Shown: piece after piece, positions 21,662 to 29,256 of the stretch
Layout: each line of letters opens with the position of its first letter
Position numbering within the stretch: position 1 is the first letter of the stretch
Origin: Desulfotalea psychrophila LSv54
GTDB lineage: Bacteria > Desulfobacterota > Desulfobulbia > Desulfobulbales > Desulfocapsaceae
Assembly (NCBI RefSeq): GCF_000025945.1
Contig: NC_006138.1
Coordinates: 3,330,001-3,362,000 of the forward strand
DNA length: 32,000 nucleotides
Direction of reading: 5' to 3'
Program-made: the position numbers and the translations under genes
The notes under the pieces: model-generated
Told to the model about the DNA's origin: nothing
Databases searched by the model: none
Seen by the model: only the letters and a program-made list of their open reading frames with translations

Positions 21662-22174
21662 ATGAAAAAAATTGCAGACCACTGCATACTGGTCCAAGCC
21701 GAATCCTACAGCTCTGCCTGCCATCAGGTACGTTATTATTTTAAAAAAACCAGCCTTGTCCTCTACGATTACCTGAAAATCTCCAAGGAAAGATCCATGT
21801 CCGCCGCCAGCGAAGGCTTTGAGCAAGAACTCAATGGGCGCCTCAAGGATAACAGGCAAAGCATCCTGAAGCTGATAAAAGAACTGGAAACAGGCGGGCT
21901 AACAAAGACGAGCGAACTGGAGAACCTTAGGCAAGGGCATCTGAGCAAAACACTCCACCTCCTCACCCATTTTCTCGATGGTTTTATCAGTGTTGATTCA
22001 GCATTTTACAGTCTTGTTGATGACTGCCATAATATCACATATCAAACGCAGGAAAGAATGAAGAAGACACCTGAGCACTACTGGATCGTCTCTATCTCCG
22101 GTTACGCTGAAAGCTTGGAGACGGGTTCACTCCTCTCCCTCCAGGGCAGAAACTGGTCAGATCCCTCCTGCTAA
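21662..22174 (+). CDS. Hypothetical protein, 170 aa, no family recognised
   Basis: The ORF lies between a strong terminator and a structured spacer. A perfect TATAAT sits about 40 nt upstream, at about 21617..21622. There is no convincing RBS. I do not recognise any motif. Confidence 0.5.
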   Translation: MKKIADHCILVQAESYSSACHQVRYYFKKTSLVLYDYLKISKERSMSAASEGFEQELNGRLKDNRQSILKLIKELETGGLTKTSELENLRQGHLSKTLHLLTHFLDGFISVDSAFYSLVDDCHNITYQTQERMKKTPEHYWIVSISGYAESLETGSLLSLQGRNWSDPSC

Positions 22175-25027: not shown

Positions 25028-26110
25028 CTAAAGATTCCAGGCCCGAAAAGAGTCACCCTCCGGGGCTTCGCCCATTATCTTAAAACTTGTCTCCCCCCTC
25101 TTACAGGTCACCATTTCCGGTGGAAAGCCACCATCGATCTTGCGCCCATAACGAACGACAAGAGAGGCGGCAAGGGCAAAGAGCTCCCCTTCCTGCTCAG
25201 CAGACAATGCCCCCAGGGCTCTACGCAACAGTATATTTGGCCCCGAACGATCTTCCATATAAAAGAGGACATCTCCCTCCTCTGCAAGCCCTTCCAGGCG
25301 AAGATTCTCCTCTTCATTTCGGCCGACAATAAGCCAAAATCCAGAATCCCCCTCTCCTCCTGCAGACCAGGTGAAAAAGCCCTGTGGGACAAGTAGCTGC
25401 CGACCGACAAGCATCAGCTCAATGTCAGTCACCCCCACATCATCTATACCAAAGTTGAACTCACCGGCATAAAGACGTTTAATCCTCTTGGAAAGGATAG
25501 GATCGGCAAGAATACAGCCTCCTGCCGGGGCGGGATAATCACTGATGCCATACTCCTTGGCCAAAGCCATCTGCGGAGCCCGACCTCGACCACCAAAGGC
25601 CAGCAATTTTTCCCGATCAACCCAACCCTTCTGTTCAGCCTCGGTTTCCGGCATGAGCTTGGCACTAAGAGGACGGAGAAGGACCGTTTTATTATCAGAA
25701 TCCCGCGAAATCACATTGAGGGCATCCCGGCGCTGCGACATGGGGCGTTGCCCAACCACCTCTCCTGTCACCAGAAAAGAGGCACCAAGCTCTACCATCA
25801 GCTCCTTGGCTCTTTTCAGCATAAAAATTTTACAATCTATACAGGGATTAAAATTTTTGCCAAAGCCATAAACCGGTTTACGCAACAGCTCCATATATCC
25901 CGGACTGATGTTTTCCACCAGAACATTGATACCGTACTTTCTCTTTACCTCAGCCTGATAGGCCTCTACATCCTGCAAAATCTCATAGCTAAAAAATGGT
26001 GTTACAAACTGTACAGCTATAAGCTCAATGCCCTGCTCCATAATCAACCTGGCGGCAAGAATCGAATCCAGACCACCAGAAAACAATGATAATGCCTTTA
26101 TACTCTTCAT
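25028..26110 (-). CDS. PP-loop (adenine nucleotide alpha-hydrolase) ATPase, ThiI/MnmA/TtuA-like sulfurtransferase candidate, with an unrecognised C-terminal domain of about 130 aa
   Basis: The N-terminus has SLFSGGLDSILAA (the SGGxDS PP-loop), followed by NPCIDCKIF (CxxC). There is no THUMP or rhodanese domain. I do not recognise the C-terminal third (LVPQGFFTWSAGGEGDSGFWLIVGRNEEEN...). Confidence 0.72.
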   Translation of the reverse strand: MKSIKALSLFSGGLDSILAARLIMEQGIELIAVQFVTPFFSYEILQDVEAYQAEVKRKYGINVLVENISPGYMELLRKPVYGFGKNFNPCIDCKIFMLKRAKELMVELGASFLVTGEVVGQRPMSQRRDALNVISRDSDNKTVLLRPLSAKLMPETEAEQKGWVDREKLLAFGGRGRAPQMALAKEYGISDYPAPAGGCILADPILSKRIKRLYAGEFNFGIDDVGVTDIELMLVGRQLLVPQGFFTWSAGGEGDSGFWLIVGRNEEENLRLEGLAEEGDVLFYMEDRSGPNILLRRALGALSAEQEGELFALAASLVVRYGRKIDGGFPPEMVTCKRGETSFKIMGEAPEGDSFRAWNL

Positions 26111-26544
26111 ACACTTCCTCTTCCTGCGACAGTAGCCGATAACCGAGTGCCCGGTGCCGTCGTATAAGTTCTACCCCATCGGGCTGTAATTTTTTCTACC
26201 TCTAAGAACGTACGCTCAATATCCTTATTATAATGCCAGTTGCCAAGTAGCACGGGGAGCAGATAAAGATCAGTGAGCCCCTACCCTCCCCTCATACAAG
26301 CTGAAGCCACGACTGAATGAACTTCAGCGAAGATGACAGTATCCACCATCTCCTTTTTAGCAAGGAGGACTTTAAAGGAGCGGCGACAAACAAGACCACC
26401 GGCCACGACACCCCAAAGCCAAGTCAAAACAGTAAGAGTCCTCCCCTCTGAACAAAATTAATTTGGCCAAATCAATAGGAGTAAGACATCTAGGCTCGCA
26501 GGCTCGTAGTTCGCGTAGCATAAATTTGTTTACGCTCTCTTATC

Positions 26545-26588
26545 TTCTTAGCTAACAACTTGACTCAAGACCAAAAGGAAAGTAAGTT
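26545..26588 (+). promoter_or_regulatory. Candidate operator (imperfect palindrome TTCTTAGCTAACAA) abutting a candidate promoter (TTGACT - 17 nt - TAAGTT) upstream of the DtxR-like gene
   Basis: TTCTTAG/CTAACAA at 26545..26558 has 6 of 7 symmetric positions and the core TTAGCTAA, reminiscent of the centre of DtxR/IdeR boxes. TTGACT is at 26560..26565 and TAAGTT at 26583..26588. This is about 150 nt upstream of the preferred start, so it is weak. Confidence 0.25.
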
Positions 26589-26735
26589 AAACCATAGTCA
26601 TAGACTCTATCATTCCTCTAGAAAAAGAGGTTAAGCATACGAATCCACACTACTTATATGCTATCTCCCTGTGCCAATAAGCCACAGTCCGGAGCCTCAT
26701 ATCGGTCAAACCAAAGCCATTTTACTATACTTGAC

Positions 26736-27242
26736 ATGAAAGAGAAAGAAAGCTTAAGTGCAAGCCTCGAAGATTACATTGAAATAATATACCACATCAT
26801 TGAAGATAAGCTCGTTGCCCGTAGTAAAGAAATTGCCGCAGCGATGAAGGTAAGTCGAGCTTCTGTAACCGAGGCATTGCGGGCACTTTCTAAAAGAGGA
26901 CTCATCAACTACGCGCCCTATGAGGCAATCACCCTTACTGAAAAGGGTAAGATCGTAGCCGAAGATGTTATCTTCCGCCACCAATCCCTTAAACGATTTT
27001 TCGTTGAGGTGCTGGCCATTGAAGAGGGTATTTCCGAAGAGGCCGCCTGTCGGATTGAACATGCCGCGCCACCAGAAGTAATTGAGAAGATGGTGAACTT
27101 CATTGAATTTATGCAGGTATGCCCACGGGGCGGAGAAGAACTCATTCGGGGTTTTGCTCAGTTTTGCCAAAATGGCAAGCAAGCCGACAACTGTGATGGT
27201 TGCATTGCCGGCTGTTCGGGACCAATACTACCGCAAAGTTAA
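26736..27242 (+). CDS. DtxR/MntR family metal-dependent transcriptional regulator with a Cys-rich C-terminal tail
   Basis: Track ORF 26658..27242. I prefer the ATG at 26736 (MKEKESLSASLEDYIEIIYHI...), because family members begin close to the S-x-EDY-[IL] motif. It has an HTH and a dimerisation/metal-binding region (RHQSL..., ACRIEHA). The tail has 6 Cys (CPRGG..FCQNG..NCDGCIAGC). No clear RBS is present at either start. Confidence 0.82.
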   Translation: MKEKESLSASLEDYIEIIYHIIEDKLVARSKEIAAAMKVSRASVTEALRALSKRGLINYAPYEAITLTEKGKIVAEDVIFRHQSLKRFFVEVLAIEEGISEEAACRIEHAAPPEVIEKMVNFIEFMQVCPRGGEELIRGFAQFCQNGKQADNCDGCIAGCSGPILPQS

Positions 27243-27463
27243 ATGCTCTCCCCTATTATTCTGACAATTTCGCCGTCTCTTGGAAATCGTTTCAAGCCAA
27301 GCTTAGAAAAAATAAGTTTGCCATCAACGGTAATTTCATAGGCTCCGCCGAGGGACGGCTTTATCTCAACCTCGGCAGCAAATTCCCCTACCAACTCCTC
27401 TTCCAAACTGGAAGCACGGTTCAGATAGTTTCAGCGAGTACAGTATTCAATAGAGACCTTCAT
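27239..27463 (-). CDS. SelW-like / Rdx family selenoprotein, 74 codons, in-frame TGA (Sec) at codon 11 within a CxxU motif
   Basis: My own translation of the minus strand gives MKVSIEYCTR-U-NYLNRASSLEEELVGEFAAEVEIKPSLGGAYEITVDGKLIFSKLGLKRFPRDGEIVRIIGESI*. The ATG is at 27463, with an AAGGAG RBS 7 nt upstream. The TGA is the complement of 27431..27433 and the TAA stop is at 27239..27241. The pattern IEYC-x-x-[CU]...RA..L...L....G.[FY]E[IV].V.G.LI[FY]SK...RFP is the Rdx (SelW/SelT/SelH) fold signature. The gene is missing from the ORF track because of the TGA. Confidence 0.8.
27400..27414 (-). promoter_or_regulatory. Candidate bacterial SECIS hairpin downstream of the in-frame UGA
   Basis: On the minus-strand RNA, 16 nt after the UGA, lies CUUCC-AGUUU-GGAAG. 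It can also be drawn as a 6-bp stem with a GUU loop. The apical loop contains GU, as in bacterial SECIS models. The stem is short and I found no clear lower-stem extension. Confidence 0.45.
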
Positions 27464-27553
27464 ATCTTGCTCCTTATCTTTCAGATTATTCACAACACTT
27501 CAGAGAACTATTCCCTAAAGAGATCTTACAAAATACACCTACTCAGATATACA

Positions 27554-27590
27554 GAGGAGGATTGAACAGAACAAGCTGTTTCTCCTCCTC
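27554..27590 (-). terminator. Hairpin between the GNAT gene and the SelW-like gene (terminator-like, no U-tract)
   Basis: GAGGAGGA (27554..27561) pairs with TCCTCCTC (27583..27590), an 8-bp perfect stem. The 21-nt loop contains an inner AACAG/CTGTT pairing. On the minus strand it begins 5 nt after the GNAT stop. Confidence 0.35.
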
Positions 27591-28385: not shown

Positions 28386-28470
<85 letters not shown>

Positions 28471-28488
28471 TTCGATTTTGCATAGCAA

Positions 28489-28563
28489 GCGGGAATAGCT
28501 CAATTGGTAAAGCATCAACCTTCCAAGCTGAGGGTTGCGAGTCGAGTCTCGTTTCCCGCTCCA
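28489..28563 (+). tRNA. tRNA-Gly (anticodon TCC), CCA encoded, with an irregular T-arm
   Basis: GCGGGAA-TA-GCTC-AATTGGTA-AAGC-A-TCAAC-CTTCCAA-GCTGA-GGGTT-GCGAG-TCGAGT-CTCGT-TTCCCGC-T-CCA. The acceptor, D-arm and anticodon arm fold normally. The exceptions are C13/A22 and A30/C40 mismatches, and a T-loop of only 6 nt. Confidence 0.8.
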
Positions 28564-28581
28564 TTTTTTAAATAGTTCGTT

Positions 28582-28657
<76 letters not shown>

Positions 28658-28766
28658 GTAATACCTCTTAGTACAACATCCAGTATTTCTCAGCGCGGTC
28701 TCTTTTTTCATTCTTATATAGTTTCAAAAACCCCACATTGCATCTCTGCGTCCACTCTCCACTTTC

Positions 28767-28780
28767 TATACAGCTGTATA
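28767..28780. repeat. Perfect 14-bp palindrome TATACAGCTGTATA in the spacer upstream of the SHOCT gene
   Basis: Read directly; the sequence is self-complementary over all 14 positions. It shares the ACAGCTGT core with the two copies at 12700 and 12719. Confidence 0.5.
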
Positions 28781-28964
28781 CTTATTACCCATCCCCTGTC
28801 CAAAAATCAACCAAGCCAGAGCAGAAGCACAAAAGCAAGTCATTAAAATAACGACACAATCCATTCTGGCTCCAAGCTTGCATTTCCCCATCACAGAAAC
28901 AGTTTAAAACAAGGAAAGCGTAAAAAAACGCCCCTTGAAAAGCTCATTACAGAGGGAGAGGCAC

Positions 28965-29198
28965 ATGTGGAATAACACCTGTCCAAATTGGGGCATGGGA
29001 AACGGCATCGGCGGGGGACTCGTGCAGATGCTCCTGTTGGCCCTGGTCATCTATATCGTCTATCAACTAGTTGCGTCCATCGCAGCTCGGCGTAGCACGG
29101 GCAATGGCGAGGCGGCACAAATACTGGCCAATCGCTACGCCCGGGGCGAGATCAGCGCCGAAGAGTTTAGCGAAATAAAAAAAGGCCTGAGCAAATAG
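28965..29198 (+). CDS. Small membrane protein with a C-terminal SHOCT domain
   Basis: Track ORF 28935..29198 starts at a TTG. I prefer the ATG at 28965, which has a GGGAGAG RBS. It has a Gly-rich N-terminus, one TM helix (LVQMLLLALVIYIVYQLV) and RYARGEISAEEFSEIKKGL, the SHOCT pattern. Confidence 0.7.
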   Translation: MWNNTCPNWGMGNGIGGGLVQMLLLALVIYIVYQLVASIAARRSTGNGEAAQILANRYARGEISAEEFSEIKKGLSK

Positions 29199-29216
29199 CA
29201 GGCGACAAGAGAAGCA

Positions 29217-29241
29217 GATGGGCAGGTTCTCTCTGCCCATC
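29217..29241. terminator. Perfect 9-bp hairpin between the convergent SHOCT and DUF364 genes
   Basis: GATGGGCAG (29217..29225) and CTGCCCATC (29233..29241) flank a 7-nt loop. There is no U-tract on either strand. Confidence 0.4.
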
Positions 29242-29256
29242 CCTCCTCACCACAAA

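Follow-up and report, generated by a model that had tools for sequence, protein, structure and literature searches.

A SelW-like (Rdx family) selenoprotein gene with an in-frame UGA and a covarying SECIS-like hairpin in Desulfotalea psychrophila LSv54

Background

In mammalian SelW, a CxxU motif follows the first beta-strand of a thioredoxin-like fold, and eukaryotic SelW relies on a SECIS element in the 3'-UTR together with SBP2/eEFSec, instead of on a hairpin within the open reading frame and SelB. Bacterial SelW-related proteins of known structure, namely Atu0228 (PDB 2fa8), SAV_2001 (3dex) and those of P. fluorescens (2obk) and V. cholerae (2p0g), share the Rdx family and fold with the protein discussed here and carry a CxxC motif at the place of its CxxU. 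Being of the Cys type, they differ from it in having Cys for Sec, are approximately 25-30 residues longer, and need no SECIS.

The closest described system is the SelW-like selenoprotein that was published for D. psychrophila without coordinates (Zhang, Romero, Salinas and Gladyshev 2006, Genome Biol 7:R94). Additional file 4 of that study prints, under "#SelW-like", the exact 74-aa sequence treated here with U at position 11, and the two are identical residue for residue and represent the same gene. Table 3 of the same paper credits D. psychrophila with 12 selenoproteins (SelD, four FdhA, GlpC, Prx-like, SelW-like, FrhA, FrhD, HdrA, and ArsC-like), while Additional file 3, which collects the sequences for SelA, SelB, SelD, and YbbB, holds four entries for this organism; Sec decoders were defined there by the presence of SelA and SelB. 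The authors also remarked that, in Sec-containing organisms, Cys homologues of SelW-like proteins are scarce or absent.

The locus that we analyzed lies in a window of 32,000 nt, by which we mean the whole stretch of LSv54 DNA under study. The original prediction, made from the letters of this window, described a hidden selenoprotein gene. With its sequence in print since 2006, the selenoprotein gene is already known, and only to automatic annotation does it remain hidden. The prediction had further proposed that the organism probably decodes Sec, which agrees with the 12 selenoproteins documented for it as a Sec decoder (Zhang et al. 2006, Genome Biol 7:R94). The window itself contains no sel gene and no tRNA-Sec, so for the Sec machinery we rely on published work. 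Since the family, the recoding mechanism, and the exact protein have all been in the literature since 2006, the scientific weight of the locus is small, and its residual value lies in the curation of a faulty database entry and in a comparative dataset on the SECIS of the family.

The gene and its in-frame UGA

The following features define the gene and its immediate surroundings:

27239..27463, minus strand: complete reading frame for the SelW-like (Rdx family) selenoprotein, 74 codons followed by TAA (27241..27239), as given by its translation, the span of the Pfam Rdx match, and the published sequence
27431..27433, minus strand: in-frame TGA at residue 11, predicted to be read as selenocysteine from the TGA at 78 of 80 loci, the Cys of PDB homologues, and the U of the published sequence
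27440..27442, minus strand: TGT codon of Cys8, with which the CxxU redox motif opens; across the 80 sequences of alignment A2 its column does not vary (TG-)
27470..27475, minus strand: Shine-Dalgarno-like AAGGAG, read directly from the sequence, with a spacer of 6 nt (27469..27464) to the ATG at 27463

Read on the minus strand from 27463 to 27239, the LSv54 window translates as MKVSIEYCTR*NYLNRASSLEEELVGEFAAEVEIKPSLGGAYEITVDGKLIFSKLGLKRFPRDGEIVRIIGESI*, where the asterisks stand for the TGA and the TAA. NYLN follows directly after the TGA, and the product ends in GESI before the TAA. This is the open reading frame as it had been decoded in the original prediction, and the 63 codons for which the frame was said to stay open correspond to the 63 sense codons that we count between the TGA (27433..27431) and the TAA (27241..27239), with downstream family sequence also in frame in relatives. 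The claimed ribosome-binding site AAGGAG is present, but its spacer measures 6 nt and not 7 nt, which is a trivial difference. As had been noted, the mechanically derived list of open reading frames offers no credible gene at this locus, consisting only of a 55-aa ORF that begins with TTG on the minus strand (27239..27406) and a 121-aa shadow ORF on the plus strand (27200..27565). A promoter scan found no sigma-70-like promoter beside the gene, and no terminator was detected directly after it.

Family membership and predicted fold

Profile searches were run on the 74-aa product with Sec replaced by Cys. The Pfam Rdx profile (PF10262) matched with E = 5e-20 and 71.9 bits, compared to a cutoff of 22.6, and its alignment covers residues 2-70 of 74 on both sides of the TGA. 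The NCBIfam model TIGR02174 (CXXU_selWTH) scored 62.8 bits against a cutoff of 34.2, while the closest model, the Campylobacter equivalog NF041051 (SelTWH_Campy), reached 83.9 bits and falls below its cutoff of 88, leaving the protein outside that equivalog. A search of PDB sequences gave 2fa8 as the best match (4.2e-11), followed by 3dex, 2obk, 2oka, 2p0g, and 2ojl, which are bacterial SelW-related proteins from structural genomics; it also matched MIEN1 (2ljk) and gave a weak match to mouse SelW (2npb, E = 0.01). The redox motif of the window protein is C8-T-R-U11, and the CxxC that the query has after the replacement aligns exactly on the CxxC of the SelW-related PDB proteins (e.g. 2fa8 and 3dex). 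At the level of sequence, these matches strongly indicate that the protein belongs to the Rdx / SelT-SelW-SelH family.

The fold was modelled for an unedited full-length homologue (P0004, 56% identical), so that a thioredoxin-like fold for the window protein is suggested by homology. The model of P0004 has a pLDDT of 91.7 and the order beta-alpha-beta-beta-beta-alpha, with beta1 at 2-8, alpha1 at 14-28, then beta2-beta4 and alpha2. Its best structural match in the PDB is 2fa8 (TM 0.92), and SelW-related proteins as a group score 0.89-0.92, ahead of MIEN1, mouse SelW, and thioredoxins. The Cys-type bacterial structures introduced above superimpose on the model with a TM of about 0.9 at approximately 26-35% sequence identity to P0004, whereas mouse SelW and MIEN1 have the Rdx superfamily in common with the window protein and are distant from it (E = 0.01 by sequence, TM 0.69). 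In the P0004 model, residue 8 is the last of beta1 and residue 14 the first of alpha1, so that the CxxU motif is predicted to lie where beta1 meets alpha1 in a thioredoxin-like fold. The beta1-CxxU-alpha1 layout of Rdx/SelW proteins that had been recognized in the original prediction is therefore matched both by profile scores above their cutoffs and by the position of the motif in the P0004 model.

Conservation of the UGA codon among relatives

One genome per species was scanned for relatives, which yielded 147 loci, and the best 80 of these 147 were examined; the counts in this section refer to those 80. The codon aligned with the TGA of the window is TGA in 78, TGC in one, and TGT in one. 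In all 80, one reading frame takes in both the N-terminal pattern M-K-x-x-I-x-Y-C-x-x and the family sequence downstream of the codon, as would be expected from the earlier proposal, which called for a downstream frame kept in relatives. Most of the hosts are Desulfobulbales, and there are also members of Neomarinimicrobiota/Fidelibacterota, Gemmatimonadota, Planctomycetota, Nitrospirota, Acidobacteriota, Zixibacteria, and Firmicutes. Only two relatives have the Cys form, L066 from a Dormiibacterota MAG (TGT) and L045 from a Desulfofustis MAG (TGC).

A stop codon that is kept at one position across distant phyla between conserved coding flanks, and that is replaced only by Cys, is a signature of Sec and excludes a pseudogene. 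It had also been proposed that the TGA should align with Cys or Sec in homologues, and the aligned position is indeed the second Cys of CxxC in the solved SelW-related proteins and TGA in nearly all of the examined loci. This branch of the family appears to be almost exclusively Sec-containing across many phyla. The near-exclusive use of Sec agrees with the view, put forward earlier, that SelW-like proteins originally contained Sec, and the 78:2 ratio of TGA to Cys agrees with the remark on Cys homologues by Zhang et al. (2006).

Representation in sequence databases

The gene has been stored in public databases in truncated or altered form, as had been anticipated for standard gene callers. 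The RefSeq entry for the locus is:

27239..27424, minus strand: truncated RefSeq product WP_083819000.1 (P0001), 61 aa, "Rdx family protein", starting MNRASS; an annotation artefact and not a separate gene

Since this product starts with MNRASS, its implied start is a CTG at 27424..27422, just past the Sec codon, and it lacks beta1 and the CxxU motif. Homologues from metagenome-assembled genomes show a different error. P0002 (from a contig of GCA_002754885.1, locus L001), which is 81% identical, is stored as CTRW, and P0004 (GCA_041555935.1, locus L002) is stored as CSKW, each with Trp at the Sec position. The DNA of both close homologues has TGA at this codon, so the Trp probably derives from gene callers that applied genetic code 4 or 25 to MAG contigs. 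In addition, P0002 has a spurious N-terminal extension of 35 residues, and P0003, P0005, and P0006 are fragments truncated at the 5' end. We also observed that a 432-aa sequence from Logan (P0016) shares a 90% cluster with the 55-aa fragment P0003; it could be a fusion or a readthrough call on a short contig.

The practical use of these observations is a curation fix, in which WP_083819000.1 needs a transl_except (Sec) correction and extension to 27463..27239. More generally, the locus and its MAG homologues, with Trp in place of Sec or with a start past the UGA, are examples of small proteins with N-terminal Sec that are still mis-annotated.

A candidate SECIS element

The original prediction had pointed to a hairpin with a GU-containing loop that begins 16 nt past the UGA:

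27400..27414, minus strand: core of the candidate SECIS hairpin, within the ORF, with a stem of 6 bp (CUUCCA/UGGAAG) and the apical loop GUU (27408..27406), based on covariation and RNAalifold

Its position was found as described, with 16 nt between UGA and hairpin and 22 nt between UGA and loop in the window sequence, and the proposed role as a SECIS fits the covariation across relatives. When folded as a single sequence the hairpin region is ordinary (z = +1.04; an equal or better fold was obtained for 170 of 200 shuffled sequences). The window hairpin alone is thus not thermodynamically unusual, and the evidence for a SECIS comes from comparison with relatives.

For this comparison, alignment A2 was built with MAFFT from the window and 79 TGA-containing relatives, each contributing 72 nt (9 before the TGA, the TGA, and 60 after), and it is gapless. 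In the stem, where columns 28-34 face columns 38-44, 86.6% of the cells form a standard pair, a share that falls to 28-48% if the 3' side is displaced by 1-3 columns. Double-sided changes number 86 in the stem and 29.9 +/- 8.9 in shuffled alignments, and the covariation score of 0.430 (0.210 +/- 0.012 in shuffles) was reached by none of 500 shuffles. The two central pairs alternate among C-G, U-A, G-C, and U-G. Given no structure, RNAalifold returned this helix for its inner five pairs (columns 30-34 with 38-42), with compensatory change at four of them, and over the 60 nt that follow the UGA it gave no other conserved structure. In 61 sequences the distance from the UGA to the start of the apical loop is 21-22 nt, and most loops have G first (GU or GG). 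Substitutions in the stem shift the encoded peptide along with them, for instance from A-S-S-L-E to A-A-S-L-A, which makes constraint on the protein improbable as the sole cause of the pairing, although in a hairpin that lies within coding sequence such a constraint could account for part of the conservation.

We conclude from this comparative evidence that 27414..27400 probably forms the core of a bacterial SECIS, to which SelB would bind. With bacterial SECIS elements as represented by the E. coli fdhF prototype and the bSECISearch consensus, it has in common an in-ORF hairpin directly 3' of the UGA and a G or GU that opens a small apical loop. It differs from the fdhF type in its very short stem (6 bp) and 3-nt loop, with no bulged U evident and no sequence similarity to fdhF. 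The bSECISearch consensus allows 16-37 nt between UGA and loop, a range that includes the 22 nt of the window. A permissive Rfam scan of 27200..27520 returned no SECIS family, only chance-level matches to mir-4766 and YenS; the covariation-supported alignment presented here is a possible seed for a covariance model for annotation.

The two Cys-form relatives differ in this region. L045 has lost the two central pairs and the GU loop, while L066 retains a 6-bp stem at the SECIS position with the loop CGC, which may be a remnant after Sec-to-Cys conversion; two Cys forms are too few for a conclusion on hairpin loss.

A separate observation concerns the Firmicutes. In approximately 50 nt from the TGA, MAGs of Gudongella/Tissierellaceae and Soehngenia (L047, L053, L059, L064, L067, L068, L072, and L073) have a hairpin in a different register, with a loop of AGUU or GGUU that starts about 17 nt after the UGA, compared to 21-22 nt. 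At several of these loci, the UGA is itself base-paired within a long lower stem (UGAGGGUAUC...GAUACCCUCA). This shift in register points to two SECIS layouts within one protein family.

Proposed decoding and alternative explanations

We propose, with a probability of about 0.95, that the locus is a SelW-like (Rdx family) selenoprotein gene whose UGA is recoded via a SECIS to give a small redox product. Translation would start at the ATG at 27463 and would not terminate at the UGA (27433..27431). The hairpin 16 nt further on, acting as a bacterial SECIS, would recruit SelB with GTP and Sec-tRNA(Sec), and with this complex bound as the ribosome reaches the UGA, selenocysteine would be inserted as in the established SelA/SelB/SelC/SelD pathway. 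The predicted product is a thioredoxin-fold protein of 74 residues (beta1, CxxU, alpha1, beta2-beta4, and alpha2), in which Cys8 and Sec11 at the beta1/alpha1 junction may form a reversible selenenylsulfide that cycles with the selenolate/thiol state. Judging from the family, its function is most likely that of a small thiol/selenol oxidoreductase. Sec insertion in vivo, the binding of SelB, and the redox role are in this sense what we infer for the gene.

Two other readings of the TGA itself can be weighed against this one. If the TGA were a genuine stop, the real product would be a downstream ORF of 55-61 aa or the locus would be a decaying pseudogene, and both the 61-aa RefSeq Rdx family protein that starts past the TGA and the 55-aa TTG ORF would fit such a reading. 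We consider it exceedingly improbable, because the ten codons upstream (MK-SIEYC--) and the TGA are kept in 78 of the best 80 of 147 loci and across distant phyla, over which a pseudogene would not preserve an identical stop codon; moreover, the ATG at 27463 is preceded by a strong ribosome-binding site whereas the RefSeq start is a CTG with none, and the truncated product would be deprived of beta1 and the entire redox motif. There is a similarly minute chance that the UGA is decoded as Trp or Cys, by near-cognate readthrough or under an alternative genetic code. The Trp stored at the Sec position of P0002 and P0004 would suggest as much, but this residue is most likely the product of gene callers using code 4 or 25, given the TGA in the DNA, and the hosts span many phyla with the standard code. 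Homologues have Cys at this position and never a Trp codon, a covarying hairpin of the SECIS type stands at a fixed distance from the UGA, and the organism has documented Sec machinery with 11 other selenoproteins.

It is also conceivable that the selenoprotein gene is real while the hairpin at 27400..27414 is kept only for its peptide, A-S-S-L-E, the true SECIS being elsewhere. The hairpin does lie entirely in codons 16-21 of a conserved helix, its single-sequence z-score is unremarkable, and the Cys-form L066 retains a similar stem. Against this, the paired columns covary while the residues change (UUCCA/UGGAA to CGCCA/UGGCG to CGUCA/UGACG), the double-sided changes (86) exceed the roughly 30 expected, and pairing drops to 28-48% on a slide of 1-3 nt. 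G comes first in most loops, the Cys-form L045 is without the two central pairs and the GU loop, and RNAalifold gives no other conserved structure over the 60 nt past the UGA, all of which makes a role confined to the peptide highly unlikely. The pseudogene, the Trp readthrough, and the hairpin explained by coding constraint only were accordingly rejected on the grounds of TGA conservation, replacement by Cys only, and covariation.

Genomic context

The SelW-like gene sits between DP2968, which encodes a GNAT protein (CAG37697), and a convergent repressor gene:

26658..27242, plus strand: gene for a DtxR/MntR-type metal-dependent repressor (Fe_dep_repress and Fe_dep_repr_C domains), convergent with the SelW-like gene and overlapping it by 4 nt at the 3' ends

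A convergent DtxR-family neighbour is found at 25 Desulfobulbales loci, the window included and the others lying among L004-L044. We regard it as very unlikely that this pairing goes beyond inherited gene order and reflects a functional link, for example in metal or redox homeostasis or by mutual interference in transcription; if true, such a link could offer a first clue to what SelW-like proteins do in bacteria. Within Desulfobulbales, RecN and an HD-domain protein also occur often as neighbours and are absent from the window, while the relatives in Firmicutes (Gudongella group) sit upstream of dnaX-ybaB. The neighbour analysis found no partner gene common to phyla, synteny extending to the order level only, and without a cross-phylum partner the gene context gives no functional clue.

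Elsewhere, the window carries lpxA-fabZ-lpxD and recA along with regulators and three tRNAs (for Tyr, Gly, and Thr), and its encoded proteins include MnmA (CAG37684), CinA (CAG37686), Lrp (CAG37688), an SbmA-like protein (CAG37692), and a U32 peptidase (CAG37682). Three further features were noted:

21662..22174, plus strand: 170-aa ORF without a Pfam match, between genes of the Orn/DAP decarboxylase family and an MscS-type channel
25028..26110, minus strand: 360-aa protein with a ThiI-like domain and an NFACT-R_2 RNA-binding domain
28386..28657, plus strand: cluster of tRNA-Tyr, tRNA-Gly, and tRNA-Thr

The approximately 600 nt that follow the tRNA cluster (28658..29256) contain only small ORFs of less than 90 aa and no convincing gene, and the approximately 550 nt between the genes for the ThiI-like/NFACT-R_2 and DtxR-family proteins (26111..26657) contain no credible ORF. 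A homologue of the 360-aa ThiI-like/NFACT-R_2 protein is encoded co-directionally with, and downstream of, the SelW-like gene at approximately 21 related loci.
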